DNA of 62,386 bases, the filler included. It is 15 parts of 15 records of this genome, joined end to end, with 100 filler letters (N's around TTAATTAATTAA, not from the genome) between each part and the next. Parts side by side here need not be neighbours in the genome. Positions count along the whole stretch, not along the records: positions 46,842 to 54,221 come from SRR9188676_1421; 14 more parts are not named here. One strand, 5' to 3'. This document shows, in pieces, positions 5,091-59,731 of this stretch (position 1 is the stretch's first letter; each line of letters begins with the position of its first letter). A model generated the notes under the pieces. The model worked only from the letters and a program-made list of their open reading frames with translations. It did no database searches and was not told the origin of the DNA. The translations under genes were made by a program, and so were the position numbers.

Positions 5091-5190
5091 NNNNNNNNNN
5101 NNNNNNNNNNNNNNNNNNNNNNNNNNNNNNNNNNTTAATTAATTAANNNNNNNNNNNNNNNNNNNNNNNNNNNNNNNNNNNNNNNNNNNN
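5091..5190. other. Artificial contig linker (N44-TTAATTAATTAA-N44), first of 14
   Basis: Identical 100-nt spacers with stops in all six frames at 5091-5190, 11214-11313, 14866-14965, 19021-19120, 24281-24380, 26568-26667, 31264-31363, 38065-38164, 40674-40773, 43577-43676, 46742-46841, 54222-54321, 57260-57359 and 59411-59510. Confidence 0.99.
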
Positions 5191-11213: not shown

Positions 11214-11356
11214 NNNNNNNNNNNNNNNNNNNNNNNNNNNNNNNNNNNNNNNNNNNNTTAATTAATTAANNNNNNNNNNNNNNNNNNNNNNNNNNNNNNN
11301 NNNNNNNNNNNNNTGATATGGTATGGTCTGGTATGGTATGGTAGAGCATGGCGTAC

Positions 11357-14821: not shown

Positions 14822-15181
14822 GTAAGCTTTATTCTCTCTCACACACTCACTCACTCACACACACANNNNNNNNNNNNNNNNNNNNNNNNNNNNNNNNNNN
14901 NNNNNNNNNTTAATTAATTAANNNNNNNNNNNNNNNNNNNNNNNNNNNNNNNNNNNNNNNNNNNNGAGAGAGAGAGAGGGAGAGGGAGAGAGAATGCAAT
15001 GGGAAAGTGAGATGCGGAACCACGCATATCAGCATTTCCAGTCCGTGAGTGTGGCCCGTGGATGGCCCGTGGGAGATACGAACCGAGTTTGTGGGGATGG
15101 TGATACAGTGAGATGGGTGATGGTGTCACACAATGGCTAGCGCCTTGATCAGGGAGTCGACAACACGGAAAGAGAGGGTAC

Positions 15182-18847: not shown

Positions 18848-19532
18848 GTAATTCTAGACTGCCCCCCCTCTCTCACACATACACGCACGCACACACACTA
18901 CACACACGATCGTTCGTATTTCCCATACAATCGAGAGAAATTCGGGGAATGATGTATATTTATTGGTCTAATGACAACCTTGGGGTCATTCACAAATACG
19001 TAAGCAGGGAGAGGGGGGGGNNNNNNNNNNNNNNNNNNNNNNNNNNNNNNNNNNNNNNNNNNNNTTAATTAATTAANNNNNNNNNNNNNNNNNNNNNNNN
19101 NNNNNNNNNNNNNNNNNNNNGTGTCCTAATACAAGCCATCTCTAACTCAATACTGAAAAAAAGAAATACGTTAAGCCCCTTTTGAATTGACGCTGCCATT
19201 TTCCATTTCAATATCTCCCCAAAATACAACAGGTTGTTGATCTAGGGCAAATAGATAATCGACACCACACTCGATTTGTAAGAGGTTTTCTTGTTTGGCG
19301 CTGAAAGTCGAGAAATATAGATGAGTTGATAGTTGGTCAGAGGGAAGGTCCGTCTCGACAGCATAAACGGAAACCGCGGTGAAAGTCATTGTAAAGAAAT
19401 TTAGAACAGAATTTCGGGACCGTGCTTGAGCAGAGTAGCCAGTCGGAAAGGACTAATGAATTCCCAGGTGATCTTCTAAAATTCTCTCAGCCATCACGTG
19501 TTTTGTTTGGATGAACAAATAATGCGACGTAC

Positions 19533-24225: not shown

Positions 24226-24643
24226 ACATTCTGCGAAGCTTATCCTCATTAAGTGTATGTATGTATGTATGTATGTATGTNNNNNNNNNNNNNNNNNNNN
24301 NNNNNNNNNNNNNNNNNNNNNNNNTTAATTAATTAANNNNNNNNNNNNNNNNNNNNNNNNNNNNNNNNNNNNNNNNNNNNGCTGATGTGACGAGATCCAG
24401 ATCCCATGGAGATCTAATGATAGATCTGATCCACAACCCAAAACAGTTTAGTTATTGTCGGGGGTGGACAGCCACAAAGGTTTTGATTTTTGTGAAGCTC
24501 TTTTTGCTTTGGCATTTCTTCCCGTTCTTCAACTTTCACTTCTCTTTCTTTTCGCTTTTGCTTTCTTTTGAAAAACAACGACATCTTCTTTTTATTCCTT
24601 CTTCTTCTTCTCATGCCTTTAATGACTGGCTAAAATTGTTCAT

Positions 24644-26272: not shown

Positions 26273-27025
26273 TTCCACCACTCGACGTTTCGCCTACATT
26301 ATCACTGAAATTGTTCGATAGAACACTGTATTGTATTATTAGTAAAACTCATAACTTCTATTGCAGTCCATGGTACTCCTGTTACTCCTGATTTTACATT
26401 TGATGATTTTACATTTGATGAATCAGCTTTTGTGAATAGAGTTGTTTTATTTTTGGGCAATAGAAGAATTGGAAACTGGAGGAGAAAAAAAAAAAATCCA
26501 CGGAACCCTTCTCCCGCTGGAAAAAATTCTTACTCCTGGGCTACATCACTCCTAAAAAGCTGTACGGNNNNNNNNNNNNNNNNNNNNNNNNNNNNNNNNN
26601 NNNNNNNNNNNTTAATTAATTAANNNNNNNNNNNNNNNNNNNNNNNNNNNNNNNNNNNNNNNNNNNNTTTTTTTTTTTTTTTTTTTTGCTTTGTTTTGTT
26701 CCATTTCGACTTCGTGTGAGTTTGTGTCTATGAAGAGCACACAGCTCTACACGACGATATTTCCTTTTGTCTGTATAAAAACAGCGATATTAAATATTAT
26801 GATCAGGATAACATCGATTTGTATGTGTGTCATTGTCATGTACCAGCCGTCACAGACTTCAGGACCCAACATGTACAAATAGAGTGTGATATAAAGGTAT
26901 GCGCACATGTACCTGAGCAACGAGGAGCAAGCAGTGGGATGGTTGAACGGGGAAAAATAAAAGTTGCAGAATGAAAATTATTTGGTCAACTGCGGTAAGG
27001 TAACTGTTGCAGTTCTTGTTCTTGA

Positions 27026-29696: not shown

Positions 29697-31213
29697 ATGG
29701 TCAATTATCGATCACACATTCGGCCTGCGCCTCAACCAGAGTTTCTCTGGGACCAGAAAAAGAAGCCACTAGATCTATCTGTCTGCTCTCTATCAGCACC
29801 TGGTTCGAGACAAAAGACTCTTGAGATTGGACGAGAAAGGCGAAAGACAATCTATCATGTTGACGACTATCCCTCTGGCGGGACTGTGTGCTTGTCATGT
29901 CTTGGCACGCAACCCCCGGCTCACTCCATTTCATTTGTATGTTTTCGGTTCCGTTCCCTGAATGAGCTTTGTATTTGCAAAGTTTGTTTTACTCTAAGAT
30001 GGAGTCCTATTCCATGGGCTCTTACTTGAATTGGTGATTTTGGTCGAATTGACATTCATCGTTGGATTGAACCTCTTTCGCAGATTTGAATATTCTGAAA
30101 CAGTTCGTGTATTTACGCTGACAAAAACTATTTCAGCTCATCTCTTCATTATTTTCCGGTCGCTGTCTCACTGGAAATGTGGATCCCTTCTCCCCATTCC
30201 CGTATGCAGCCGATCTGCCGATGTGGACCAATTGCACCCAAGTCCATTGGTGGTCCTGGTCCTCCCCCAGAGCTAGAGCCCAATGAGCCCCCCCCACCAC
30301 CCACCCACATTCCAGCTGAGCTCACACAGCCCATCCACACGCAAAACCTCTACCAAAAACCCGCTTTCCCCTCCAACAAATTCTCCTCCTTGACCTCCAA
30401 CAGACCGTCTACTTCACCACACCCATCCAAACGAACCAGCTCATTCATTCAAACAAACCACATTCCTCCTCGCCCCTCCACACAACATCACACCTCGATG
30501 CGAGCACAAACTCAGAATTTCGCTTCCTCTCCCTCTCCATCCCCCTCACTGTCCCCCTCCCCGTCCTCATCCCCTTTTCCTTCCCCGCCCATGCCCAACA
30601 TGTCCTCTAACTCATCCATGTCCATGTCTATGTCGATGAAACCTCGGCCGAAAACCAGTCTCGGAACATCATCAACATCATCGAATCAGGCGCAGCAGAT
30701 GACCAACATCAATTCGCTGCCCATATCCAAAAAGACCACTACGATATGGGGCATGGCCATACCTGCCCCCGACCTGGAATATGCTCGCAATACTACTTCC
30801 ACTATTATGGAGCACAATCTTCATACAACTGGTTCTCGAGATATGTTTTTATCTACACCTGTTGGACAGCACATCTCGACTGTGTCTGTTACACGTCACG
30901 CCGCTACGTCAGCAATCCATCCAAATACCACGACATCCAGTCACTATCAGTCCCAATATCAGACTTTTAATGGTCTCAGTACTACCAGTCTTGACCAGAA
31001 TGGCATTGCCACACAGGGGGGGGCGTTCGAGCGGGTAACCAGGGGGGTAGGGGGGGTAAGTGTGCCAGGGGAATCTGGGGACCTGTATGGGTATGGAATG
31101 GAGTTTGGTACGGGGTTTGGTACGGGGTATGAGCGGCCACGACCCAAGTCCGAGTGCACCATGAGACCCAAACCTGGTGCTCTGCGAAGAAAAGAAATGG
31201 GCCTGCGTCCTCG
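29697..31213 (+). CDS. Hypothetical Pro/Ser/Thr-rich low-complexity protein (3' partial)
   Basis: ATG at 29697, an open frame over 1 kb (30177-31213), and a GTACAT donor at 31214. Confidence 0.6.
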
Positions 31214-31235
31214 GTACATAATCCCATCATATATC

Positions 31236-31263
31236 TTCTATGACCCTCTCCACGACGACCATT
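31236..31263 (+). repeat. Dispersed intronic repeat, copy B
   Basis: TTCTATGACCCTCTCCACGACGACCATT at the contig end, about 22 nt after a splice donor. Confidence 0.85.
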
Positions 31264-31363
31264 NNNNNNNNNNNNNNNNNNNNNNNNNNNNNNNNNNNNN
31301 NNNNNNNTTAATTAATTAANNNNNNNNNNNNNNNNNNNNNNNNNNNNNNNNNNNNNNNNNNNN

Positions 31364-34300
31364 GGGAGAGTACCCGGAGAGCCAGCGGGGGCGCGAGTGC
31401 CGAGGGTGTGGTGCAGCATGGACACCATGATCTCGACAGCGAGGGCGGCTGCGATGGGGGCGAGGCCAGGCCGCGTCACCGTGCACTGCTGGTCGAGCGT
31501 ACGCCCACTCATAGAGTCCAGAGGCGCAACCACATCATTACAAAAGTAGCATCCGAGCCGCTCAGTGCATCCGCTTGCTGACTCATTCTCAGATCTAGAA
31601 AAGAAAAAAAGGAAAATAAACTCCACAAATCCGAGGAGACATGCCAGCATCATTGGAGTAAATCCGAAGCAGTAAACGAGTGGTTAGTGGGCTTACCCAT
31701 CGGCAGGAATACCGTTGCCGTGGCGCATGACCAGGAAGGAATCGAATGCAAGTGCGGAATTGATGGCGATCTTGTTCTTCGCGGCGCACATGAGAGTGGG
31801 CAGCCATCGCGACTCGCGTGTGTCGGTGCCGATGAACACCACGTCGTGCTCGTCTATCATGCGGTCGAGTGCAGCCACTGCCTCGCTCACGCTGTCGGCC
31901 TCGGCGTCTCCGACAGGATGGCCCGGCATGGGGATGGACAGCACAATTCCCTTGGCAATCACTCCAGGGAAAATCTCTTGGAGACTCTCGGCAGCGGCCT
32001 CGGCCTTGAACCTCCCTGCGACGTAAATGAATGGGCAACTTGAAATGGATTAAATGCTGTGAAATCATGTTGAGTGTGATGAGAAAAAGAACCATGATAG
32101 ATAACACGGACTTTGGGCGAGATTGGATAAATCAATCAACATAGCGATGAAATGGTAATCTGCTTTGATGGCAAAATTGAAGGAAAAGGCAGAAAATTTC
32201 GGTGTCGGGGAAAGCTAAGACATCAAATGTCAAAGACTGGTTATGTAATGAGGCACTGTTACCTTCTTGAGCATGTTTTGCAGTGAGCAGGGACTGGCGG
32301 ACGGGGTTGGAGTGGCTGACGCGGCCAGAGTCCACCATGGTGATGGTGCGCACACCCCAGCCCAACAGTGTGCGCGAAACGGAGCAGCCCAGCGTGCCCG
32401 CACCCAGCAGCAGGCACCGGCACTGCGAGATCTTGTCAGTGTCCAACGACGGTAGCACTCGCCACCGCATCAGCTTCAGGTTCAGATCAACCGCGGTTTC
32501 TACGTGTTTACGAGAAGGAATACAAAAAGAAGAATAGGTCGTTATTTTTGTCAGGACGAGAAACTGGACCCGCACGAGTCCATGAGGTCCATTCGGAGTG
32601 CTGTAAATATGACTTTAGAACACGAGTTGAAGATCAATTAGAGGCTTTTCTGGTTCTACAAAACACCCGCAAAAAGAGGGTCCTATATCTTTGCAATTTT
32701 CAGCAAGATGACAAAAAGGGTGCACGACCTAAGGGCACAGCCAAACTTCGCTGGACAGACGTGTTGTAGCTAAATCGAATACATCGTGGCCATTTTGCGG
32801 GTGATATAGAGAATGAAAATTGCCAACAGAATCACTGATTGTATTAGCAAGAATGCGGGTGTGATCAGGCTACAGATCACATCAAGGAAGTCATCAGATC
32901 ACATCTATCTTGCTGGTGAGTTAATGAGACCACAAAATAAGGAAAAGGGAACAGAGTATATATAATAATAAGAGGGAAAAAAACACAACAGCCTGACGTA
33001 TTAGTGATCGAGAAGTGATAATACCGTACCAGCCAGAAGCTTGTGGTCCATCATGGGAGCGAGATCCACCACGCGCGGAGCAAGCTTGCCTGCAGAGGTT
33101 CTCTCCCATCCAACAGCTTTAGGCTCGGTAAGCACTGAGGCCCCCGGCAGTTGGCACTGCATAATGCATGACTTGGAAATATCCGCAGCCTGCATAGCGG
33201 CGAGGATTCAAAATTGATAGAGAAACGGAGCAGTAGCAAATACAAATCTATATTCTAGGTCATAGATAAACCACCAAAAAAGCAATGGAAGAGGAGGAGG
33301 GGAGAATAATAAAAAAAAGAATTCTGGAGTTTTGAAGAAGTAAACATCGAAAGTTTGATGCTGGTTTTAGCCCAAACAGAGTACAGTGCGCTTGATGCAG
33401 ACAATCTTGACATACTTGTGGGCGATAACATATGATGTTGACAGTAGCAAGGCCACGGGTGCAGGCTAGTGCGAGGAGATTGCGCAGCGGCCAGCCGGGA
33501 TTCTTCGCGAGAGGACATGGATCGACGAAGGCCAGGTAGCATTCACAATCGCCTGAGCTAAATACCTGTGATACAAGACAGTTAGAAAATAAAATGTGGA
33601 TTAATGAACAAAGAATCCATCATTCTGGGGTCTCTCTTGAGCCTACCTCATCCCATTGCGACAATGGACAAGCTTTGACCTCCTGATGACAAACACGAAC
33701 AAGGAAAGCGGCATTATCGGCACCAGAAGTGTACCATTCCTCAGGGGTATATCTTGTTTGACCCCCAGTCAGTACTGTAAAACTGCGAGACAATGCAGTC
33801 TGCTGGCCATCGCTGAATGTCTTGGAAATGGGCTCTAATTCGCTTGCCTGAGAAATAAAAGCCAAGCTAAGAGGACATGATTCGCATAATTTTTTGAAGG
33901 AGTTCATACTTCAAGGCCAGGCAAAGACAACGCGGGGAATGCAAACCAGTAGGTGAACTTCCACGTTTTGAGATCGGCGTACACTAACAACCCGAAACGG
34001 TTGAGGAGCGAAGGGCTTCGAAGAGCTGCTCCGGATTGGATATCTTGTGAAACTTGTACACCCAAATTAGCCAGATATGTATTTTTATCAAAATCACGGA
34101 ATGCATCCATAGTGTTGAAGACCTTGACACTGCCTGGCGCTTTATAGTGATTCACTGGAATATTCCCCTCTATGATGGTGACAAATAACCATAAATAAGA
34201 TTAAAAGTAGTAGAGAATAGGACTTTGGTACCATTTTCCGTGCAAATCGATTGGCGATCGACTGAGAAGCATGATGGGGTTTGATGTGTAAGATCTGCAG

Positions 34301-34427
34301 CTGTATAGTGCCCTTCCAGGTATACATCGTTTTCGCTCAGTTTCAAATGATCAAGCTTGTGATTAGCAAGATGTTGCCAGAATGCAACCTCCACAAAGGA
34401 ATTAAATGGTTGAAATTGGAGAGACAT
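31364..34427 (-). CDS. ATG7: Ubiquitin-like modifier-activating enzyme ATG7 (3' partial)
   Basis: [47 protein letters not shown]...[43 protein letters not shown]; catalytic [11 protein letters not shown]. All introns GT-AG. Confidence 0.98.
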
Positions 34428-34572: not shown

Positions 34573-37500
34573 GATGAGCGCGTTCCTTCACTCTCTTCCG
34601 CCTGGTCAAACTGGTTCTGAACGACAATGCCCATCTCGAATCACTTCTCGTCCCTTAAGCTCACGCGAAACTACATGCTTTAACCCAATCTTTCATTCTG
34701 TTCGACAATATGGCACTCTTGCAGCCACCACCCTTACCTCTCGAACCAAGAGCTCTGTTATCACTGAATCTGTCCCTTCTCGCTTGTCATACCTTGCTAG
34801 AATTCAGAAACCTACACCTACAAACACATTTTCTTCGAAATGGTTCGATATCCAGTCCCTGCTCTCGAATCCTTCGCGACTGCTTAGCGGTGCATTTCTT
34901 GCTTTATCCTTCTTGTATTTTCTTCTTTTAAGGTATCTTCTGCTTCATTCATCTCATTTTGATCTTACCCTGATTTATTTTTCCCCTGATTCGTGCTCTT
35001 TTTGTTCGCACTAAAAGTCCATCTGGATTAGTACGACGATGGTGGAGGTAATGTTCAGTTTAACCCGATCGTTCATAACTAAATTATTTTTTAGGAAACC
35101 TGCAAGTGATACAGAGCCTCATTTTTCTCACCATCGACCCCAGGTTTTTTTTGCTTTATTAGCATTCATGGATCATGCATCTCTTACCTTCTCATCTACA
35201 GCAAGGCACCTCCAGCGGGTCTACATTTGATGATGAAAATCTTCAACTTGAAGGCTATTTATATACTGATCTTACTGCCAAGGTACATGCTCAATTATTT
35301 TGTTGAAATTGGACACATGATCTTATTGAATGATTAGATGCAAGCTCTCCGCGACAAGGGACAAGATTTTCGACCTCATGGGAGAGAAACAAATGTTGAT
35401 CGTGCACTTGAAGTATTAAATAACACTGGTTCGCCGAACAATGCGATCCTGGTGGGAGAGAGCGGGGCGGGGCGTGGGGTGATTGCGGAGGCCATTGCCG
35501 ACCGCATTGTGCGCGGCACCGTGCCCCCGAGACTAAAGAATGCCCGTGTCCTATCAATTGATGTCCATCGCCTGAATGCGGATGCGCATCGAGATGTAGA
35601 TTTATTATCTGAAATCAGCAAAGAGGAACGGAAACGAGTGAAAGGTATATGAGGACAAAATCGAAAGGATTATAGATGGTTGAAGGGAACCAAATTTTCC
35701 GCATTTTTTAATATTATTATTGCTCATTTCACTGATATGAACCCCTCTTCACATCGCTTTCATCTTCCAAAGGACAAAACACTCGTAAACCACTCACCCC
35801 TGTCATTTTTCTGTCCGGTAGAAGCCTCGAAAGCGAAGAAGGCAGCTTCTCCCGGAGCGTCAACAGGGGCGTCAACAGGGGCGTCAGTTCCTTCAACTCC
35901 GCCACGCCCGTCTCCTGTAATTCTGTTTTTCAACGATGTCCATTACATCATGGCGACTGGTTCAGCAAATTCTGTTTCCCCCGCCACACATACACTTCGG
36001 ATGGCCCTTGAAGATCGTGATTTTGCTGTGCTGGCAACCTCCACTCCGAAGGACTTCGAAAAAGCTTCTTCCAAGGTAGATTTCCCTTCTTCACCGTGGA
36101 GCAGGATTCACAAATGATTTCCCTTCTTCATCAGGATGAAGCGATGAAACGACTATTTCATACAATTTCCATCGATGGTCTGGATGCGACGTCCAGCAAG
36201 GCAGTACTCTCAGCCTCAGTGAACCAGTTCCGTCAGCAGCACCGTGTCGAAATCCAGGACTCCGCCGTGCAGAGTGCCATTCGCTTGGCCCAGGTATCTC
36301 AAGCTTGTTGTAGTCTCTCGAATCGATAAAAGTTTCCCTCCTCGTCTTTTCTTCCGAATGTGAATGTGGATTCAATTACATGTATCTCTTTCTTCTCTAG
36401 GATTTATTCCCAAGCCGACGTAACCCCGGGATGGCCCGAGAGCTGCTGGCCTTGGCGAGCAGCAAGGCGGAGGTAGGGGGGAGTGAAGCCGTGACCGAGG
36501 AAACAATTGCCAAGGTGGTGGCCGACCTCACTGGATCCTCAAGTGTGTGCTCCTCTGTTTTGGCCCCCCCTTTTTTTGGATCTCAATATTTTTCCCTTCT
36601 TTCTAGGTGATTTATTCCTTAGCGAACAGGATCGCGAGCGTTTGCGTGATCTGGAAACAATTCTTGGGTCCAGCGTTGTTGGACAGTCGCTTGCGGTCCG
36701 CGCGGTTGCCGATGCCATGCGCCGTGCCCGCACCGCTATCCATGATCCGAACCGCCCCCTCGGCGCATTCCTTTTCACTGGACCCACGGGTGTCGGGAAG
36801 GTAGATGTCATGAATTTTCTCAGCTTTCCCTCTCTTTGTCCACTATTGTATTGTATCGGACTCGATGATCTACGTTCTCTACTTACGTGCCTTCTCGGTT
36901 TTCTAGACTGAATTGGCTAAAGCGATCGCAGACGCCATGTTTGGGGGCCAGAAGCACATGCTCATGCTGAACATGAACGAGTTCGCAGCCAGCCATGAGG
37001 TATCCCGTCTGATCGGTGCGCCTCCGGGGTATGCGGGCCATGACGAGGGAGGCCAGTTGACCGAGGGCCTCAGGCTTCGCCCGAACTCATTGGTGCTCCT
37101 GGATGAAGTCGAAAAGGCCCATCCAAAGGTAACATATAGTGTCACTTTCCGAACGTTCTCCGCTCATTGTTCCGAACAGATCCTTCAAGCTTTCACACTA
37201 AGCTTCCTATCATGAGCATGTAACTCGACGGATTTCATCTTCAGATACATGTAACTCGACGGATTTCATCTGGGGATACATGATTCAGTGTCACAAAAAT
37301 TCAGAATGGCTCTCATCTGAGTTTCTCATCCGCCTAAGTCATTTGTATTTTCATTGTATTTATTTTCATCTCGTATGCTCCTCCGGAGCAGGTGTTCTCC
37401 GCAGATGGAATCGTATGAGAATGATCATTTGATGCGATGTTCAACGATCTAATCCTACTATTTTTCGTGTCCATGCAAACCCTATTTCAACCAGATTTTC

Positions 37501-37845
37501 GATGTTCTCCTGCATGTATTCGACGAGGGACGCCTCACCGATGGTAAAGGGAACATTGTTGATTGTAAACGAGCTCTGTTCGTGATGACTTCCAATCTTG
37601 GATCTGCGGAGCTTATGCAAGTGATCCGACGCAAGCGAGACGAGCCTGATGATGAGCAGATGAACGGTGAGAAGGGCGAGAAGGGAGAGAAGGGTGAGAA
37701 GGGTGAGAAGCTCAGTGTGCCTGAGAACACTCTCGTAGGAGTATCAGGCGAGCGAGTGGCATCGACTAGCGAGCAAAGCTTGGGCCACGCGGACGCCGCA
37801 GCAATCACTCGCGAGCAGCGTGATAAGGAAGACATGCAACTCAAG
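34573..37845 (+). CDS. Divergent Hsp100/Clp (ClpA/ClpB-family) ATPase with N-terminal presequence and TM segment, degenerate NBD1 (3' partial)
   Basis: NBD1 remnant: YTDLTAK...[13 protein letters not shown]...[14 protein letters not shown]...VILFFNDVH. Intact NBD2: [65 protein letters not shown]. Confidence 0.9.
37217..37282 (+). repeat. 31-bp tandem duplication in a Clp intron
   Basis: CATGTAACTCGACGGATTTCATCT(TCA/GGG)GATA, two copies starting at 37217 and 37248. Confidence 0.9.
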
Positions 37846-38225
37846 GTAGGATGAAGTAGAACTCGTTTTCATGCATTCTTCTGCTTAAAACAAACAAGTT
37901 CACATACGCATCGCCACAGAACGTAATCGAACGGTTACTCACATACACTCAATGAGTGATCAACACACCCGCTGATATCCAAGAAGAACATAGAACCACA
38001 CACAACGAAAGAGGCGGGAGACAAATCGAGCGAACGAGAGAGAGAGGGAGAGAGGGAGAGAGAGNNNNNNNNNNNNNNNNNNNNNNNNNNNNNNNNNNNN
38101 NNNNNNNNTTAATTAATTAANNNNNNNNNNNNNNNNNNNNNNNNNNNNNNNNNNNNNNNNNNNNTCCCATTTTCGACCCGCTGAAGCGAAAACATCTTTA
38201 TGTAGAACTAAAATCATGCACTTAC

Positions 38226-40186: not shown

Positions 40187-41090
40187 CGGGAATTTAAAAG
40201 GTCAAGACGATGATGAAATGCTCAGATGATCCCAGAATTTCCCTCCTGAATTATCAAAAGTCCAATGAGTTAGATCGTGTTTATGTTGCGAAAGTCAATT
40301 TTACCCCCCTTGCAATTGCACGTCAAAAACCCAACGTAGATCCGCTAGATCTAGTCGTATACCATTTATAGAGGGTTACTTCATTCATAGTTACTTCATA
40401 TAGCTTGACAAAAATGGGGAGTACGATACTTGTTGGAAGGCTGATGTTTCTTAGACTGACTTTTCAGTTTTCACCTCAGTTTCACCATGATTTTTAACGC
40501 TCTTTCCAATAATGTAATACTGTACTTCCTTATTGATATTTCTAGCCAAGGGGTTGCAAAAACCGAGGCGATCATGCATCTTCTATCGCTTTGTCAAGAT
40601 CATATCTGCTCTGATTTCGGTTTTGAATTTGATAAAGACCATATATGGCAATTTCTCAGGAATTGCCTGGTAGNNNNNNNNNNNNNNNNNNNNNNNNNNN
40701 NNNNNNNNNNNNNNNNNTTAATTAATTAANNNNNNNNNNNNNNNNNNNNNNNNNNNNNNNNNNNNNNNNNNNNCCCAGTCCGAGGATGGCTCATCCTTTT
40801 CACGCTGTATAATGAAGCGAAGTGTAAGAAAATTAAAGCCAGAACGCCAATCAGATATGCGGTTTGTCGCGAAGTCTTGGCTCTTTATGACTTTATCTTA
40901 CGATCGCTGTGCTGGCTCATTTCTTATATATTTTCCTCAACACTCAATTTTCGGATACAGTCTCTCTCTCAACCTTTTTGCAACCGTTTGGTTTTGGTCT
41001 CGATTTTTTGAATTATTTGTTTTTTTTGCGCGTGTGTGTTTTCGCTATATATGTCCATGCTCATATGGTGAGTGTGACATTCTAATATAG

Positions 41091-42300: not shown

Positions 42301-43676
42301 ACCAACCATAACCGAATAAGAGATTCAGGTCTGTTTCACCAGAAACCTCACGATTCCACGATTCACCAACGTTGCTTATGTGCAACTAGCACATGCCAGC
42401 AATTTAGACGATCAATCGCAAGATGGTCTGGGGACAGAAAAATATAATTCACAAAGCATCGCATTCATTCTCGCCTGTGGGTACTCATTACGATATTCAT
42501 GTTTCATCCAAGAGTCCATCGAGGGGTGGAATATTATTTCCCAACATAGGAGGAAATAGTCAACGATGTTGATGAGATGTCGATTATCTAGACATTCTTG
42601 CGAAGTCATGTTCCTTGAAGACTGTCACAGATAATCTCTTCCATGTCTCTTCTGTACTCTTTAGTTTCATTGTTTTTTGTTCAAAAAAAAAAAAAAAGTT
42701 TATAGTCCTCCGAAAATGAGTACAGAACATGAGTTTCGGAATAGGGAGAACTTATGAGAGTAGGGGGTTGCTGGAGGAGAGTTTCATTTCGGCAGATTCA
42801 GAGCTGAAGAACAGAGCCAAATCAGATTATTTACGTATGAAAAGAAGGACGGAGTTTCTGTGCTCCATCTGACATCACTAACAACCTAAACGGTGACATG
42901 CGATTAACAAACTTCCTTTCGATGTGGAATCTCAATCAACTGTACAGGTATATGCAGCTGACCGCCAGAAGTTTCGAAAGGTGCCTGAAGTAAGAATATT
43001 TTCTTCTTCATCTATAAAAAAAGAGACATTTCGAATATTTCTCTCTTTGGCCGGAAAGGAGGGGCGATGGCGAGGATCGAATGCACAATTAACGAAAAAA
43101 CGACCAATCCATCGGAAGGAAAGGAAAGAAGGAGAAAAAAACCCGAGCGATCGAAGGATTAGCCTACCCGCGCAGGGCACCGGCAGGGACGGCGGGCACA
43201 GCAGGAGATGGCGACGATCGCATGGACGATGGAATGACAAAAAGGAAAGGGGGAAGAGATGAAAACATGAGATAATTTGACCAATGAAGCTCTGATTAGG
43301 TTGACCAAAGAAAGACAGGAGAAATCTACCTTGTGGATTTCATTCTTCGCAGAGTGAGGAGATTGTTTTTCTTTTCAAACAAAAAGGCGGTGCCACTAGC
43401 AAGTGCTCAATGTTCAATAAAGAAGGCCCTCCTTTTTCTATTTTCCCCCCAAGGTAATGGATAAAAATTGCAATTTCACCCCCCCTGCGGGGAGGTATAT
43501 CGAATTCTATTGAGTTGCTTTACCTTTCCCTTGTTTTTCTTCTTCTTGGAGCCATCTTCGGGCTTTTCAAGGATTTNNNNNNNNNNNNNNNNNNNNNNNN
43601 NNNNNNNNNNNNNNNNNNNNTTAATTAATTAANNNNNNNNNNNNNNNNNNNNNNNNNNNNNNNNNNNNNNNNNNNN

Positions 43677-46516: not shown

Positions 46517-46841
46517 GTACGCACTAAATGAGAAAAAATTGGCAAGTAACAAATGGAAAACCAGAAGGGGAAAATAGCTATTTCCTCACGAATTGCAAAA
46601 TCAGCAAGTGTCGAGCAACCTACGAGTGCCGGCAAGACTAGGTTGAGAGAGACTCTGAATGTATAACCGCATGGATATGTAGTTTCATTCACTTTGAGCC
46701 TTCCAAATTCTCAGAAATGGGTCACCGCAAATCAAAACCGANNNNNNNNNNNNNNNNNNNNNNNNNNNNNNNNNNNNNNNNNNNNTTAATTAATTAANNN
46801 NNNNNNNNNNNNNNNNNNNNNNNNNNNNNNNNNNNNNNNNN

Positions 46842-46892
46842 AGAGAGTTAGGGAATGGTCGTCGTGGAGAGGGTCCTAGAATAGGATGAATA
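46842..46892 (-). repeat. Dispersed intronic repeat, copy C
   Basis: Reverse complement TATTCATCCTATTCTAGGACCCTCTCCACGACGACCATTCCCTAACTCTCT at the contig edge, in a DPE2 intron. Confidence 0.85.
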
Positions 46893-46936
46893 AATAGGGG
46901 GAAAAACCGGACCTATATCACATCAAAAACACCTAC

Positions 46937-48312
46937 CCTAAAATCGGAGTCAGTGACTTGCAGCATAGTGTTGGTGCCAGGCTTGACGCTTTGCACGTTA
47001 GCGCTCATGTCCCCCAGGGCTTGAGTCAGCTTGCGGTTTGCACCAAACTCGTATGCCACGCTCTGTCGCTCGTTGGGCTTGTCAGTGCTGTTGCAAATGA
47101 CATACTTGTACTCCAGAGTTGCCAGGGCCTCTTCGCCTGCAGGAATGGCCACTGCTACCTCCCACATGGGGAATTTGGCACCTAAAGAGGAGAGAATGGA
47201 ATGGAATGGAAAGTGAATGAATCTGATGAATTGACTGACATTCGTGACTGAAAATGGACTTAATCTGAGCGAGACCCGACTATCAGATGAAGAGATAGAT
47301 CGACATATGTGATGGGTATAAGAGTCAACAGAAAAAATACATGAACATCATTTCATTCAAACAATGACGAGCGAGAAAATATAATATACCTGACATTTGA
47401 ACAGCCTTTGGCAGACTCCAAGAGCCCAGAGCAGGGATGTTTCCAATGACACAAACAGTTTGGTGAGGCTCAACGCGAGGGATATTGGCTCGGAAATAAA
47501 CAACAAGATCTCCCTTGGCATACTTGGGCAACTGTGCAACGGGTTCTACAAAGACGAACAGTTGATGATATGAGATCGTGAAATTCAGAGGCAAATAAGA
47601 TTTGTTGAACAGCAATGAAAGACAACATCATGAATAGTTCGCAATCTCGGAAAGTGAATCTTGAAGATATTCGATTTCGGGAAAGGAAGGATAAGGGAAT
47701 CACCATGAGCTGCCTCGGGTCGCACGAAGATGACCTTCTGGAAAGCAGAGGTTTCAAAGACGCTTCGGTTCCCAGGGGTCTGCAATGAAATATATAGACG
47801 AGTCAGCGGCCAAAAAAACGAATCATTTTCAAATGAATCTCGAATCTCGAGGAAAAATACTGACCTGCCAGCAATCGACAACGTGGAGCACACCGAGCTC
47901 GGAAGATGAGAAGGGGTCCAAGGAAAAGGTCCGGTTGGACCCACTTTCATAAGTATCCCGACGATTGTTTTCAACAACCGCATACTTGTAGGTGAACGAT
48001 TCAGTCTTGGGCAGGTCAAGCACAAGCTCCCACCTTGTGAATGAACATTCCAGTATCAGAGCACCGCCACACTGCAAAAATGGATTCTTTACCAGTCACC
48101 AGGCAGGTACTTCATTGCAGGAGCATCATAGACATTCCAGGATCCGATCTGAGGCGAAGATCCGACCAGCTTGACTACCTCCCCAACGCGGGTGGTATAA
48201 TGGATTGTGAATCGAACTTTGCATGTGGCTGCCATTGCTAACACAAATAGAAAACCATCAGTAAGCCATCAAGATTGGTAAAACTGTGAAATGCGGCAAA
48301 CCGACCTGACAT
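46937..48312 (-). CDS. DPE2: 4-alpha-glucanotransferase, DPE2 type: two N-terminal CBM20 domains (GH77 domain beyond the contig end)
   Basis: CBM20-1 VRFTIHYTTRVGEVVKLVGSSPQIGSWN...YKYAV...ESGSNR; linker FETSAFQKVIF; CBM20-2 VCVIGNIPALGSW...FPMWEV...LEYKYVI...EFGANR...DSDFR. The double CBM20 plus SAF..VIF linker is characteristic of DPE2. Confidence 0.85.
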
Positions 48313-48826
48313 TTCCTTTCGTCCGTGAGTCGTCCAACTCGACGAAATTGCGGCGATCCACACGAAATTTGCTTTTTCACAGACAAAAGATTAGATCCCC
48401 GAAAGGGGCTATACTGAGAGATCTACATAAGAGTTCTATGAAATTTACGGGGGTAATTTTAGTCAAACGATAAACAAGATCCAACCACAAACGAATAAGT
48501 TTTGACATGACAAGCTTTCTTGCAATCAGGCATTAACCAGATGCCTCCTTTTATCCTCCTTTCAGCTGGTTCCATCTCGCATTTCCTGCGTCGTAAAACG
48601 ATTGAAATAAATCATATTTTCAAGATATTTCTGTACTGTCCATAGTTTAAGTTATTGTCGTGCGCCAACAGAAAATCTCTATCCAGTAATCCAGTTCTGA
48701 GTTCCTACAAAGTTCGTTCGTAGCCTGCGATACCCCCCTTTGGAAAAGATTTCTTTCCTATACCGTTGTGCCTTTGAAGGGGGGGTAAGACACATTTCCA
48801 TTCACATCATTCGCCTATCAAAAAGA

Positions 48827-49522
48827 ATGGAAGCCTTGCAGCCGTCTGATGATGAACTTGTCGATTATCGAAATGCTATATTTAAAATGTCACAGAAGAT
48901 CAACCCAGATCTATCCATTTCCCGGCATGCGGTTGAGGAAGTGAACAAGTTGGTGAACTCATTTCTGCATGTGATCGTCAAAGAATGTACTGGTGATAAC
49001 CCAAGAGGCTCACTCAACTGCGACGATATTGAAGATGCTGTCAAAAGAGTTACATCAGGGAAATTGCAAGAATTAGCACTTCATAATGCCTCAAAAATCC
49101 AAACAAGGTGACTTTTTGCTTTCCACATCCCTTGCTTCAAACTCATTTATTTTGGTCACAGAAAACTACCAACCTCTTTGAAGTTCAATGAAGAGACTGA
49201 AGATGCTCAGCTGACCCAGTCCGAGGAGTCAGACTCCCACAACTTGGCTGCTGATGATTTTGTGCCTGCCGAGGCCTTTGAAAGTCAAGGAGACCTCGTT
49301 CCTGCTTCTCAAACTGTTGGTTCTTATCCAAAAAACAAGAATACAAGCAGTACAGCACCATTCTACAGTGATATAGCCGATCTGAAGTATACAACATCCC
49401 AAACCAAAAAAAGCAAAGTTACAATCAAGAATGAGACAATTGCGGATATTTCTGTTGAAAGAAATATATACCTATTTGGCGTGATGATGATCTTTTTTGC
49501 AATCATCTATCTGTCATCGTAG
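48827..49522 (+). CDS. Histone H2B-fold protein with acidic linker and C-terminal transmembrane helix (213 aa, 2 exons)
   Basis: Exon 1 (48827-49107): DYRNAIFKMSQKINPDLSISRHAVEEVNKLVNSFLHVIVKEC...SLNCDDIEDAVKRVTSGKLQELALHNASK. A 54-nt GT-AG intron (49108-49161) follows. Exon 2 is in frame and ends RNIYLFGVMMIFFAIIYLSS-TAG. Confidence 0.8.
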
Positions 49523-50258
49523 CTTTTATACACAAGGTTCATCGAGTTCATCAATCGCATCAATCTTGCTTGAGAACTACTAGATGAATAAATTCTTTCC
49601 CCCCCCCAAAAAAACCATGTGAAGTAATTCCTCCCCTATTCGTCATAATGTCGAAAAAGAAGAGAAATCCCGAGCGTCACATCAGATGAATCCGAAAGAA
49701 GCCAAATGACATTCGATCTGTTCGTCCAGTTGTGCGAGAACGAGAGCATGAAGAGATGCTCAGAAAGGTGAGAATGAGCAAAATATGAATGTAGTTCGAC
49801 TTTGAATGCTCGAGAGCGACCTCAGCGAGGATTTAGAAGTTCGCGATCGATTGAGAAAATATTTCAAAAACGAACAAAGGAGAGAGGGTGGAAAACAAAA
49901 AAAGAATTAAAAGAGTAAGATAAAGAAGGACCAAATACTCCAATAATTCAATCGAAATAAAGAGTTCCCGTTTTATGGAAGGTCGCTTCATCGGGCATCA
50001 TCCCTGTCACCTCAAGCTTTGCAAACATTTATCGCCCGGGAAGCGAGAAAAATGAGTACGAATGATATCCGAAGAAATTTCAAATGTAGAGCAAAACAAT
50101 ATCTGAGAATATGTTTGTGTATTTCTCCCTGATTTCTCCGGAATGGATTCACTGAACGTCACAAGACCAAAGACTCGGCTCAATCGCGTCGTAATTTGGC
50201 AATGTTTGTCCGACAAGCAATGTTATAGGCAGATTTGTATTTTTGTATTGAAATATAT

Positions 50259-53200
50259 ATGGATGAGAGGTTACTTCTAGCAGTTCAACTCCATGAAGCC
50301 GGCGAACTCCAGGAGGTGATGATGAAACTTGAAACTCCTTTCCACAGCCTCTCTCATTTTATGACCTTTATCAGGCCAGGGCTATATATGAATCTCTTTT
50401 GAGTGAGGATTCCGACAATGCGCATGTCATTCACTTCCTTGGAGTCGTCGAACAGGCCGAAGGGCACTATGATCTTGCATTGGAGATGATTGGACATGCG
50501 ATTTGGCTAAATCCATCCAACTCTTCATACTTTAATAATCTCGGAGAGACATATCGGAAGATGGCTATCTCAGAGACCCAACAACGGCGGTCTGTATCCC
50601 CTCTATGTGTACTGCTTATATAGATCTCATGATCTCATTTTGCAGGTACCAGAATGGGATCAAGCATATCTACTCTGCACTCAACATCTACCGTTTTGCT
50701 CAAGCCATCGATCCGAAACTTCCTATGCCTATCTATAATATCCTTTCATCTTTGATTCCCTGCCTCAACGATTTTTTTCTTTCTTTTCTGAGGCTCATAT
50801 TCGCTTTTTACACCATTATTCTATAAAAATGACAATATGAAACCGAATTCTCTCCTTAACCTTGGTTTCCGTCTATTTGGCTCTGCTCTTGATGTGATCG
50901 AGCACATGAAGGACTCTGTCATTCACTGATGCGGAACCACTCACGTGCCATCCAGTCATATCTCCGCTGCATTACCCTGACGCCGTCCTACATCCTTGCT
51001 TATCGAGGTACGTCTGATTCTGTATTCAAGTCGCTCAGTGCTAGAATGCTATCGCGGATCCTCCGTTGAGTCAGTATTTTTTCGAGTCTATATTCGACCT
51101 CGATTGCATCGATGTTTGGGCTAGAGCTACATTGATTTCTTTAATATTCTGTCTGAAACTTCCGACGTGGACAACTTTTGGAAGTTATAATCATGTTACA
51201 CCCACTGAAGCATCCATTGGAGCAGATGGACTTGACAACAGCACAAGCTGTTTAATACAGCGAATCAAAATTGTCGGATTTCGCGTGCAACTCTGGGTAC
51301 CGTAAGAATATCCAGATGAACATCGCCAGATTCGTACGCTTCGACCACACAAACCCAGAGACATATTTCTTCCATCTGTGTATGCTAGCACTTGTGATCA
51401 TTTATGATACCCGATCCAGTTGTGTGCTACTCCTGAACAACTTCCAATTTTTCTGAAATATCATCTCTGCATTTATTTTGTCTGTATGTTCCACAAATCC
51501 CTGAGCTCCTTGAACTTCATTTTCCTTTGTTCTCACACGCTACTCCTTCGCTCTTCCACGGATGTATTCTATTTCCGATCCAGGGCTGTCCGCACTTTTT
51601 GACAATCTTTCTCTGCCGTATGGTAGCCTATGGGTGCAACGTGTGGCCCATGTCTTGTGCCGCGACTATCGCACTGAGGCTGAAGCTCACATCCAACTCT
51701 TGTGCTCTGCTCAACAAGGTGCGCCACCAGCTGACCTTCTCCGATTTGCTTTCGACATTTCATTATTATAATCGAAGTTTTGACCTTTTTTTTTTTTTCT
51801 TCTTTCTATTTGGACCCTCTTTTTCTGTCTTTATTCTCAATTATTGGAGGAATTCCTCCTTCCTCTCTCTTCGAACACGAATCCACACGCACACATCACA
51901 TTATTAAATGCTGCGACAAATAACTAGTGTTCGCATGATCGGACCAAAAAGGAATTTTTCGACACGTGTTCGTGCATTTCAATCTTTTGACCCTCTCATA
52001 CAAACGTTAACGCCCTCGAGCAGAAAAACATCTGTCCCTCGATTCCCCATTCTCCATCCATGCACGAAATGCCTGTTTCTATCATTGCAACAAACTCAAA
52101 AGTGAATAAGATAGAATAATTTCATTCAATCTAGCCCTTCGCACTAGACCTTCAGCTTCTCCCTTATATTTCAAGTTCTTGGGACAATAACAGACTGTCC
52201 TGAAAAATCATATACCTTGGAATATCGTTTATTGTGTTCTATTTATATTCATTTGTGGCTTTGCTATATAGATCCTGGCTGGCAGGTTCTTTCGGAGTTT
52301 AACTATGGATTCCACTTCTGAATTTAGACCATGTTCTCCTAGTTTGATGTCGTGGAATATAGCTTGTACCTGATTTTAGTACGGATCTTTTCACTTTTAC
52401 ACAAGGACGTTTAGATTTAAGAATAACTACGTTTACAAATCCATGTTTCCTTCAAGATCATATCCTACCCATTATGCGCCTATAATAATTTTGGTAACTT
52501 TTTCATTTCTTCTCTACCCCCTTTCTCACCAAAATTTGATACTTAAGGGTTTCCTCCCCACCTCCCCTCTGAACTGTACATCCAGGGATGGCGGTGCAAG
52601 AATGGGACAAGCGTGTGAAGTCGCAGGCTGATGCATTTTCAGAGTCCGGTACGATAACTTCTTCAGTGTCACTCCTTTGTGTATCTGTGTGGGTGTGTGT
52701 CTGTAGTCTGTAGTCTGTAAACTAAGTCTTTGCTTTTGCTGCCCCTATTTCGAAAGGTCGCAAACTTTCAACGAGGGGTCGTGACGTTCTGTAGATATCA
52801 TTTTGCAACTCTTCAAAGCTACAAGAAAAAAAAAGCATTGAGTCGCACCCCCCGCCTACGATCAAGCTACGAGTCAATACCGCACCAGAGCATTTTACCC
52901 ACCACGGTTCGCAAAGTTTATAGCAGCCATCGGGCCATTGGGCCTGGGAGTAACACTGTAACACGAGAGAGGTGTTGATCACGAAAGTTCAAGATAGTTC
53001 AAGATGAATCGATTGGGAGGGCTGAACCAAAAATCTGGTCTCGCGATCGACATATCAGAAAAACACGGGTCGGGTTCCAAGTACATCTTCAGCGATGCAA
53101 AAGTTTTGAACCTTGTAGCGACTTGATTCAAAAGAGCACAAATAGTAGCACGACAGTTTGACCCCTGCGCTTGATGGCTTCTTTGAGCCGTCTCGACAGG

Positions 53201-53601
53201 GACTCAATGAGGTGGATTTATCCCGAAAAAGTGTCATTTGGTGGGTATAATTTTTCTTGAGTTGATATATCATTTTTGTCCATTTAGATCTGAAGAAAGC
53301 CTCTATTTTCGATGGGGTTGAAATGTGGAGAGCTGAGCTGCCCATCACCAGAGGGTATCGAAAGAACATCATGATTCAGTTGCAGGTGTAGCTGATCATT
53401 ACAGCCCGAGCTGATCCTCTCTCTACACCTCGACCTTTCCTCCGTCCCCTCCCCCCCCCCTCTACTATTCTCTTTCTTCACCCTCTCCTCTACATATTTC
53501 TCTCTCACCCCCCCTCCCGTGCCCGTACAGATCGCGAGTATCTCCTGCCCCTATTCCGAGGCCTCGGTGCCGTACTGAAGTCAGAAGGCTACATTCGTGA
53601 G
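50259..53601 (+). CDS. TPR-repeat protein (3' partial; start may lie upstream)
   Basis: LAVQLHEAGELQE|ARAIYESLLSEDSDNAHVIHFLGVVEQAEGHYDLALEMIGHAIWLNPSNSSYFNNLGETYRK; IYN|EGLCHSLMRNHSRAIQSYLRCITLTPSYILAYR|GLSALF; LFRGLGAVLKSEGYIRE. Confidence 0.85.
50738..50905 (+). other. U12-type (minor spliceosome) AT-AC intron, 168 nt
   Basis: 5' end ATATCCTTT; branch-like TCCTTAAC (50853) and CTCTTGAT (50886); 3' end GAGCAC. Removal gives TAT A|AT GAA GGA (Y-N-E-G) and restores a full TPR repeat in frame. Confidence 0.85.
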
Positions 53602-54321
53602 GTAACGAACCGCTTGAAAAGAGCAATAGACTGGCGACCAACTCATCATCATTTCTTGCGTTTCTACCAACTCAAATTGATTTCTATCATTTCGGACCAG
53701 ATGAGTATGTTTCGAGAGACTCAGTAGTAAAGTTTACGGAAAGCGGTTGGCTTTCGTCCTATCGTGTCAACTTCTCCTGACGAATTATCCACTCGGACGG
53801 TCAGAATTCTCAGCACTCGACGCGAAAAATTGCAGCCTCCCTTCGAAAATGGCTCTTCCACAACAGAAGAAAGTGTTCAAGTTCAATGATGTTTGGCGAT
53901 TAGGTGAGATGATGAGGCGTATGATATGATATCAGGAGCATGTCATGCCTTGTGATCGTCAACTAGTAAGGGGCACCCACTGCCTCGTTGGCCATACTGG
54001 AATAATCAAGCGTGGTCACTGCGGCACATTAAACTACACGAAGCAACACCTTACCCAGCATGCTCAAATCGGGGTTACAATCATTATTCTCTCCATGGTC
54101 AGTGATATCACAGTGTATTTTTCATAAAGGCCAATCTCCCCATACCATCGCATCCTGCAGAGACCAATAAATGATGAACATGTTCCTGATATCCCAGCGG
54201 TTGCAAAATAAAATGAACGTTNNNNNNNNNNNNNNNNNNNNNNNNNNNNNNNNNNNNNNNNNNNNTTAATTAATTAANNNNNNNNNNNNNNNNNNNNNNN
54301 NNNNNNNNNNNNNNNNNNNNN

Positions 54322-56784: not shown

Positions 56785-57933
56785 GTATTGCATGGAGAGA
56801 ATCTGACCTCTAGATAATGGATAGCCTATCATATCCTGGATAGAGCCCACTGTACTCGTATTGTACTTCACAACTCCAAGAATTGATACATACGTTGCAT
56901 GTATCTCTCATATCTTGAGATAAGAATTGGATTGGGTAGGGCAATTACAGTCAGGTGGTCTAGGGTAGGGCTGATTTAGAGCTTCCGAGAGAATGCGATC
57001 AGTACCAAGGGAATCCCTGGGATTCGTATATTTTGACGGAAAGCACTACCCTACATCATCGATATCTCACAGTATCTTCTACAACTCATCCCTTATGCGT
57101 TGATCCACATAATATCATAAATGAGAGATATATTACGACCTCCATTGTTTTTAGATCTAGCTTTTTTATTTTCCGTCATCTTTATTTGATTCCGATGCCT
57201 ACTCATTGACATGCACAACAGTGATACATATCCGAGCACCCACTGGGAGCAATCTGGGCNNNNNNNNNNNNNNNNNNNNNNNNNNNNNNNNNNNNNNNNN
57301 NNNTTAATTAATTAANNNNNNNNNNNNNNNNNNNNNNNNNNNNNNNNNNNNNNNNNNNNAATCAAAACATCTTTGCGTAATGCGAAAAAATGAACCTAAC
57401 CAAATCATGTCCCATTGTTAATAATCATAACTTTTAATATTTGTGAAAGCAAGATGTTGCGCGTTTTTGTTCGGAATCTCAACATCCTCCAGGATAGCCC
57501 TTCCTACTGCCATATCATCTCGCAAGATCAAATTCCGCATGATACAAGGGAAGAATACAAAGAGATTCTTTTGGGGGGGAGAAAGCTTTATCTGAGAAAA
57601 GTGAAACATATTTAAGACGTTGCAGGGTTTCTTTGTATATGTCAGAACTCCAGCATAAAAGTCCATTGAAAGATCCTCGCTCAGAAATGTTCGGGGGGAA
57701 AAGGAGAAAAAAAGAATAACACATGGCATGCAGTGTGAAAGCAACATCGCAGGTCCGAATTCGCGAGGTGCAAAGTTTAGTTCTATAGTTTGATCTTCGA
57801 ACTCTCACTTGGGCATCGAATTCATGAATTCAAAGCACATCGAATTTCGTCCGAAGATCAGCTGAGACAAAGTCATACAAGTTCATTTCAATAGTAATAA
57901 TGGCAGCAGGTTATGAAGAGTAGTGTTCGCAGA

Positions 57934-59288: not shown

Positions 59289-59731
59289 ACAAACAGAGAG
59301 AACGAAGATTAGGAATATGGACAAATATTTTTGGATAATGCGAGATAAGGATCAAACTACATCAAAATGAAATAAGAATCATTATTATTATCATCATCAT
59401 TTATTGTTTTNNNNNNNNNNNNNNNNNNNNNNNNNNNNNNNNNNNNNNNNNNNNTTAATTAATTAANNNNNNNNNNNNNNNNNNNNNNNNNNNNNNNNNN
59501 NNNNNNNNNNATCAATGAATCACCCCCGGGAGCGAGTATTTCTGGCGGACAGATAATTTACATTTGCGGGGAAATTAGACTCGAGTGATCTTGAAAAAAA
59601 ATTGTTGATAGCCGTCGAAACGGCAGGTATACTTTACTATATCCTAGTGAACAAAAACTATCAAGCACGAAGAAAAATATTCCGTAACGAGGACAGAAAT
59701 CGGACAGGAATATGTATATCTAAACACGTAC

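Follow-up and report, generated by a model that had tools for sequence, protein, structure and literature searches.

The window analysed here is a stretch of 62,386 nucleotides (nt) composed of 15 pieces joined end to end, and the gene in question, whose product resembles histone H2B, lies on piece 12 (positions 46842–54221, from SRR9188676_1421; 7.4 kb). Its start codon, ATG at 48827, has an A at –3 and a G at +4 and opens an unspliced open reading frame (ORF) of 94 codons that closes at TGA 49109–49111. This TGA is the only in-frame stop across 231 codons; it sits inside a candidate GT–AG intron, overlapping the donor, and beyond the intron the same frame stays open for another 119 codons, up to TAG 49520–49522. 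Removal of 49108–49161 gives a predicted spliced product of 213 amino acids (aa). This product would have three parts: an H2B-derived fold without a basic tail or net positive charge, an acidic linker of about 100 residues, and a C-terminal tail-anchor helix. A polyadenylation-like AATAAA lies 3′ of the stop codon of exon 2 and not of that of exon 1. The locus appears to be a two-exon eukaryotic nuclear gene coding for a spliced 213-aa protein, a gene model that rests on sequence prediction. All sequence features named in a preliminary description of this DNA (the ATG, the 94-codon ORF, the 54-nt GT–AG interval, the motif KKSKVTIK and the hydrophobic C-terminus) were found where it had placed them.

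We searched the protein encoded by exon 1 against the PDB using phmmer, which matched 179 different chains at E ≤ 10. Of these, the best 60 were without exception named H2B, and none of the 60 was NF-YB. Single-copy H2B chains had E-values of 1.1e-4 to 1.8e-3, and the alignments run from query residues 11–14 (alpha1) to 88–90 (alphaC), interrupted once, by a gap of 3 residues where alpha2 ends. A phmmer search of 1.84 billion cluster representatives returned six proteins at E ≤ 1e-3 (none at E ≤ 1e-10), five of which are H2Bs, and identity to the H2B relatives in this library is 27–33%. Four of the five H2B matches carry two H2B copies, so that their scores are inflated; the best single-copy match, at E 2.9e-5 and 33% identity, is a 129-aa H2B variant that occurs solely in a Logan assembly. 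One match, P0005, contains by eye an H3-like part as well, and there the two H2B parts alone aligned. The sixth protein is an unrelated repeat protein, aligned over residues 51–86 only. When the single-copy H2B variant was used as a tblastn query against the window, its sole match was 48839–49096 (E 4e-12), and no second histone-like sequence was detected in the window by this search. ESM Atlas returned only generic histone-fold look-alikes for exon 1 (≤0.90). Judging by these sequence statistics, exon 1 encodes a tail-less histone fold of the H2B type. The preliminary description had likewise called an H2B fold devoid of the basic N-terminal tail, and both parts of that call agree with the phmmer matches (all H2B in the best 60 of 179) and with the acidic segment of 13 residues before alpha1.

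A match of a different kind, and the only one that Pfam gave, was seen at 48836–49096 (+) for DUF4559 (CXorf38-like, PF15112), which aligned with residues 4–90 (E 0.0089, 16 bits against a cut-off of 27). It covers the whole histone-fold region and corresponds to profile positions 163–247 of 305; DUF4559 might contain a histone-like fold. The score is below the Pfam threshold, and the assignment was not used. In the available portions of the literature, DUF4559 is mentioned for CXorf38, for a Dictyostelium protein and for clam NLRs.

The structure predicted by AlphaFold2 from a six-row H2B alignment had a predicted local distance difference test score (pLDDT) of 79.8 and contained helices at residues 15–25, 33–55, 65–75 and 78–92, in the order found in H2B. 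Foldseek retrieved 36 PDB matches at E ≤ 1e-3 with this model, the top rows being chains of nucleosome or H2A–H2B entries (TM-score 0.74–0.78, root-mean-square deviation 2.3–2.6 Å, 81–85 columns). In a VIA search against representatives, the nine top rows (Z 9.5–11.0) also came from nucleosome or H2A–H2B entries. Lower rows contained NF-YB3 (Z 8.4) and the Plasmodium ORP1/2 histone-fold dimer (Z 8.0), followed by NC2, Dpb4 and TAFs. The Z-score of 8.4 for NF-YB3, compared with 9.5–11.0 for the H2B-containing entries, was obtained with a query model built from an H2B alignment. Since that alignment consisted of H2Bs, we count the structural matches as consistency.

The fold departs from H2B in several respects. 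Only 13 residues, acidic in character, precede alpha1, and the long basic N-terminal tail of H2B is absent. The fold has 11 lysines and arginines, a count shared by four of the five aligned H2B folds (13 in the remaining one), together with 11 aspartates and glutamates, compared with 7–9 in H2B. Its isoelectric point (pI) is 7.0 and its net charge is 0, against a pI of 9.2–9.9 for the five aligned H2B folds, so the basic character of those folds is not found here; the whole predicted protein is acidic (pI 4.9). In the alignments, alpha2 ends three residues short of its H2B counterpart, in a segment that presumably packs against H4 in the nucleosome. Two alphaC glutamates of H2B, which we take to belong to the nucleosome acidic patch, align with K and N. 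The intact frame of 93 codons and a hydrophobic core pattern kept at about 30% identity argue for selection on the fold.

To score coding potential, we used a codon log-odds measure, for which 2,180 codons in 15 ORF pieces of the window with Pfam support served as training set (a sixteenth piece was dropped as it had no open frame). Exon 1 scored +5.9 bits in frame (–26.9 and –52.1 in the other frames) and exon 2 scored +9.9 bits in frame (–50.2 and –44.9), while the candidate intron read in frame gave –3.6. The exon 1 and exon 2 scores correspond to the 97th–98th percentile of 5,000 random windows. The probability of finding the open codons by chance is about 0.018 for the 93 of exon 1 and about 0.006 for the 119 of exon 2. 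The candidate intron is T-rich (43% T), with a T-rich tract before an in-frame acceptor. For comparison, we collected eight introns from beta-adaptin and ATG7 genes on other pieces of the window (59, 62, 62, 81, 124, 127, 247 and 530 nt). Six of them are supported by homology and were refined by spliced alignment, two were read by eye, and one further junction had no solution. Their donors include AAG/GTGAAT, AAG/GTTTGT and GAG/GTAGGC, and their acceptors include ATCACAG. The candidate donor is at least as good as these donors, and the candidate intron, at 54 nt, is shorter than all eight. The joined beta-adaptin and ATG7 exons are stop-free under the standard code at six of seven junctions, the seventh having no solution. 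We found no grounds for an alternative genetic code with TGA as a sense codon; ORF counts rise for any stop made sense and are uninformative. A brute-force listing of GT–AG pairs that bridge ORFs contained 2,620 candidates, too noisy a set to be of use.

The candidate intron keeps the reading frame and carries a stop codon. If it were retained, translation would therefore yield a soluble, anchor-less H2B-like isoform of 94 aa, and a switch between the two forms is possible. The base following TGA 49109–49111 is C.

Downstream of the fold, linker residues 95–195 (101 aa) have a pI of 4.55 and a net charge of about –7 and are rich in S, T, E, D, K and A. In a charge–hydropathy comparison the linker falls on the disordered side and the histone fold on the folded side. 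No Pfam, PDB or usable ESM Atlas match was obtained for the linker or exon 2, and Pfam recognised no LEM domain in either exon. The linker is followed by the 16-residue hydrophobic stretch IYLFGVMMIFFAIIYL (residues 196–211), after which only SS and the stop codon remain. With Kyte–Doolittle windows of 17 residues, values above 1.0 were confined to residues 189–213, with a peak mean of 2.35 at 196–212; the transmembrane call is based on this hydropathy measure alone. Thus, by hydropathy, the protein has no signal peptide and a single hydrophobic segment, located at its extreme C-terminus as in tail-anchored proteins. Basic residues (176–183 and R194) lie N-terminal of this stretch, and none follows it. 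A C-terminus of this kind is seldom produced by chance: equally hydrophobic ends were found in only four of the 439 ORFs of at least 60 aa in the window, the H2B-like ORF included, and hydropathy at the 2.35 level was reached by 0.24% of 63,476 17-residue windows (six frames, whole window). The predicted product is laid out as a tail-anchored protein, with a fold, an acidic linker, a basic patch and a terminal hydrophobic helix. Such a layout had been put forward for the spliced product in the preliminary description, and it is recovered in the predicted 213 aa by the charge–hydropathy of the linker, KKSKVTIK and the terminal hydrophobic stretch. The coordinates of all these features are collected in Table 1.

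Table 1. Predicted features of the H2B-like gene and its product (positions in the window; a slash marks a splice site)
Feature	Positions	Strand	Description and basis
Exon 1	48827..49107	+	93 codons and 2 bases of codon 94; tail-less H2B-type histone fold; ORF, translation, H2B matches
Predicted alpha1	48869..48901	+	residues 15–25; AlphaFold2 with six-row H2B alignment; aligned to H2B alpha1
Predicted alpha2, long helix	48923..48991	+	residues 33–55; C-terminal end 3 residues shorter than in H2B; 3-column gap after residue 56
Predicted alpha3	49019..49051	+	residues 65–75; AlphaFold2 model and H2B alignments
Predicted alphaC	49058..49102	+	residues 78–92; extra C-terminal helix typical of H2B-type folds; model, HMMER alignments to residue 88–90
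Candidate intron	49108..49161	+	54 nt, a multiple of 3; GT–AG, AAG/GTGACT...TCACAG/A
Exon 2	49162..49522	+	includes stop TAG 49520–49522; in-frame codon score, open frame
Acidic linker	49163..49465	+	residues 95–195; charge–hydropathy
Basic patch KKSKVTIK	49406..49429	+	residues 176–183; 12 residues N-terminal of the hydrophobic stretch
Predicted tail-anchor transmembrane segment	49466..49513	+	residues 196–211, then only SS and stop; Kyte–Doolittle
AATAAA polyadenylation-like signal	49587..49592	+	65 nt past the stop codon; sole AATAAA/ATTAAA in 49401–49900

The reading of the gene as an H2B-like fold joined to a linker and an anchor is supported by the open frame, codon usage, splice signals and the downstream AATAAA. 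Judging from its layout and from tail-anchored proteins generally, the protein would be inserted post-translationally into the membranes of the endoplasmic reticulum (ER) and nuclear envelope, its histone fold being exposed to the cytosol or nucleoplasm. Histone folds exist obligatorily as dimers, and since this one descends from H2B, it would most likely pair with an H2A-type partner and hold that partner at the membrane. Its neutral charge, the loss of the tail in favour of an acidic segment before alpha1, and the shortened alpha2 lead us to favour a membrane-held partner of an H2A-type protein over a nucleosomal histone; a membrane-held dimer used for storage, buffering or docking would be likelier than a histone built into nucleosomes. 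We assign a probability of about 0.4 to the whole chain, in which the gene is real and spliced, the protein is tail-anchored in the ER/nuclear-envelope system and its fold pairs with an H2A-type partner. The chromatin–membrane tether suggested in the preliminary description survives in part: the H2B fold and the tail-anchored layout speak for it, while a nucleosomal form is disfavoured by the pI of 7.0, the acidic segment before alpha1, the alpha2 deletion and the lack of an orthologue with the tail.

To our knowledge, described links between chromatin and membranes use adaptors that bind histones, DNA or chromatin proteins, and stores of free histones, such as that held by Jabba, use non-histone anchors. 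If the proposed reading is true, one half of an H2A–H2B-type dimer carries its own membrane anchor, a more direct solution that would allow an H2A-type histone to be parked on a membrane or chromatin to be attached to the envelope. It would also widen the known range of fates of H2B variants. The protein is small (213 aa) and modular, which makes the idea directly testable, and its present value is limited by its orphan status.

Comparison with known systems places the predicted protein between several of them. With canonical and variant H2Bs, among them plant H2Bs with a short N-tail and fast-evolving germline variants, it shares the order alpha1–L1–alpha2–L2–alpha3–alphaC at 25–33% identity across the fold, and it differs from them in having no basic tail, a neutral fold, the 3-residue deletion in alpha2 and a C-terminal extension of 120 residues with a hydrophobic end. 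In emerin-type (LEM-domain) proteins, a small chromatin-related domain at the N-terminus is connected through a long disordered linker to one transmembrane helix at the C-terminus, beyond which hardly any lumenal residues follow. The predicted product would share this layout, with a histone fold as its head instead of a LEM domain. In the full-text literature, a scope that leaves out most subscription journals and supplements, our searches turned up neither an H2B nor any other histone-fold protein that bears a transmembrane segment or tail anchor; in PMC3842039 histone-fold and membrane-anchor terms co-occur in unrelated places. The preliminary description had also known of no H2B variant with a transmembrane segment, and the literature searched bears this out. 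For an H2B-derived fold in an emerin-type tail-anchored architecture, as predicted here, we could not find a described counterpart.

Individual elements of this architecture do have precedents. The available texts describe short-tailed H2B variants (PMC12536603) and H2B variants with introns (PMC8857922). SubH2B (H2B.L) of mammalian sperm is said there to act outside chromatin, in the perinuclear subacrosome (PMC8857922), so the H2B fold can be redeployed beside the nuclear envelope. H2B.L is not described as membrane-inserted in the available text of that review of mammalian H2B variants, in which the words ‘membrane’ and ‘transmembrane’ have 0 occurrences (PMC8857922), and it is no closer in sequence to the new protein than H2Bs are in general. 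The available accounts of Drosophila Jabba present it as a lipid-droplet anchor for H2A, H2B and H2Av that buffers histone supply (10.1101/2020.08.06.237164, PMC6089599, PMC3491588). By analogy, a Jabba-like holding of H2A/H2B-type histones at a membrane is the mode of action that we judge most likely for the predicted protein. A difference is that the anchor would here be one half of the histone dimer; Jabba itself, as far as we know, is not a histone fold. The Plasmodium oocyst rupture proteins ORP1 and ORP2, in the text available, form a histone-fold heterodimer outside chromatin, in the oocyst capsule (PMC5172368), and are NF-YB/NF-YC-like (PMC13323700). They are structurally close to our model (VIA Z 8.0), but NF-Y-like where the new fold is H2B-like, and no tail anchor is reported for them in the accessible parts of these two papers (PMC5172368, PMC13323700).

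Several observations weigh against the proposed membrane-anchored partner of an H2A-type protein. On the side of the fold, a Pfam scan of exon 1 found no histone family even at E ≤ 10, the gathering score of PF00125 not being reached; the assignment of residues 1–94 to the histone fold in the preliminary description is thus upheld by phmmer against the PDB (H2B) and not by Pfam. The AlphaFold2 model made from the single sequence of 93 residues had a pLDDT of 58.9, with helices in the expected places, and none of 216 Foldseek matches obtained with it reached E ≤ 0.001. A poor single-sequence model is unsurprising for the isolated half of an obligate dimer, and we regard it as uninformative. The model built on the alignment is partly circular, having H2B rows as its input, and offers consistency rather than independent proof. 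On the side of the gene, no orthologue or paralogue was found in the 1.84-billion-protein library, in scans of metagenomes, viral contigs and genome contigs, or in the window, so that no constraint on exon 2 or the tail can be demonstrated, and the exact 94-aa ORF was not found among about 15 billion collected proteins. The one metagenome match, on a marine contig (L001, 2638–4860), is a 9-residue pattern within a 740-aa bacterial-type ORF, helicase-like by eye, and was rejected as chance. Poor sampling of the lineage may explain the missing orthologues just as well as a recent origin of the gene. Per codon, the scores of the two exons (0.06 and 0.08) are at the low end compared with the training exons (0.08–0.31, self-scored). 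The host contig is only 7.4 kb long and comes from a fragmented assembly. Finally, the junction 49107/49162 is a prediction of the gene model, and the DNA coding for the tail is 43% T, equal to the intron; an apparent hydrophobic tail could therefore come from reading T-rich non-coding DNA in frame.

The last two points, together with the shortness of the candidate intron relative to all eight comparison introns and the fact that the 94-codon ORF is complete by itself, would fit translation of exon 1 alone. The intron would then stay unspliced or be retained, the product would be a soluble, tail-less H2B-like protein of 94 aa ending at TGA 49109–49111, and the downstream frame with its hydrophobic end would be 3′ untranslated. 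We consider this unlikely, though it deserves to be kept in mind: the 119 extra codons are open in the same frame, which chance would rarely produce (about 0.006), exon 2 scores +9.9 bits in that frame against –45 to –50 in the others, the stop sits exactly in an AAG/GTGACT donor whose partner, an in-frame CAG acceptor, is preceded by a T-rich tract, and the sole AATAAA follows the stop of exon 2 and not that of exon 1. The absence of orthologues from every collection searched, the weak codon bias and the short contig could instead point to an orphan ORF that is spurious or a relic with no function, as an old H2B copy would become if it drifted free of selection; the assembly is fragmented and may contain errors. 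Neutral drift down to about 30% identity with H2B should, however, break the frame, and 93 and 119 codons are open; the alignment needs just one 3-residue gap, the core hydrophobic positions are kept, and the locus has its start context, splice signals and AATAAA where a gene needs them. This explanation seems to us improbable.

Other alternatives accept the protein as predicted and concern what its fold does. Dimerisation outside chromatin in the manner of ORP1/ORP2, on a cytoplasmic membrane and either as a homodimer or with a histone-fold protein that is not a histone, would suit a neutral fold in an acidic protein (pI 4.9), unlike DNA-binding histones, and the ORP heterodimer does appear in the structure search at Z 8.0. 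According to the available texts, use of histone folds outside chromatin has precedent (PMC5172368, PMC13323700). The sequence relatives, however, are H2Bs only and not NF-Y-type folds (among the best 60 of 179 PDB chains and in the 1.84-billion-protein library), the fold has as many lysines and arginines (11) as four of five aligned H2B folds, the fifth having 13, and no candidate partner is known; we hold such a dimer to be rather doubtful. A true nucleosomal H2B variant, whose C-terminal extension is anchored in the inner nuclear membrane and staples chromatin to the envelope, would fit an H2B-type fold that includes alphaC and has as many basic residues as most aligned H2B folds, and the linker, some 100 residues that charge–hydropathy places on the disordered side, could be long enough to bridge the gap. 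Nucleosomes tolerate fusions to the C-terminus of H2B, and with its small size (about 195 aa) the extramembrane part could diffuse to the inner membrane. Against it stand the missing basic tail and the acidic segment before alpha1, the fold pI of 7.0 compared with 9.2–9.9, the deletion of three residues at the end of alpha2 that presumably packs against H4, and the replacement by K and N of the two alphaC glutamates that we assign to the acidic patch. We give this variant little credence. Still bolder would be a histone that is itself a membrane protein, entering nucleosomes or nucleosome-like particles with H2A while stapled to the inner nuclear membrane, with the soluble 94-aa isoform made by intron retention as its off-switch; we rate this as very improbable.

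The rest of the window gives some context for the gene. Fourteen identical 100-nt spacers (44 N, TTAATTAATTAA and 44 N) split it into 15 pieces of 2.0–7.4 kb; they are located at 5091–5190, 11214–11313, 14866–14965, 19021–19120, 24281–24380, 26568–26667, 31264–31363, 38065–38164, 40674–40773, 43577–43676, 46742–46841, 54222–54321, 57260–57359 and 59411–59510. Genes on different pieces therefore give no evidence of linkage. The pieces have a GC content of 0.405–0.480 and 3-mer correlations of 0.81–0.99, compatible with one organism, and the trinucleotide composition of piece 12 correlates with that of the rest at 0.986, which is also consistent with one organism. Scans of the window with Rfam and for tRNAs gave no matches, hence no histone 3′ stem-loop.

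On piece 12, a divergent neighbour (46916–48235, –) starts 591 nt upstream of the ATG of the H2B-like gene and has tandem matches to the CBM20 starch-binding domain, one at the N-terminus and one further in; a weak TPR ORF lies at 50333–50620 (+). Piece 2 carries N-terminal exons of beta-adaptin (9480–10206, +), covering residues 1–139 of a protein of roughly 900 aa, with introns of 124, 59 and 127 nt; the best of these exons is 94–97% identical to streptophyte proteins. ATG7 (31369–34427, –) lies on piece 8 in at least six exon blocks with introns of 62, 62, 81, about 247 and about 530 nt. In a collection of 5.8 billion clusters, its ThiF-domain exon reached at best 65–81% identity, to basidiomycetes, animals, an amoeba and a green alga, which suggests that the host has no close sequenced relative in that collection. 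Exons of a ClpB/Hsp104-type ATPase (AAA_16, AAA_2) were found on the same piece at 35338–37851 (+), convergent with or adjacent to ATG7. An ankyrin ORF is present on a piece other than piece 12. On piece 7, a long open frame (30099–31263, +) without a Pfam match runs into the spacer; it is of low complexity, very rich in S, P and T, and forms the most GC-rich region of the window (0.51).

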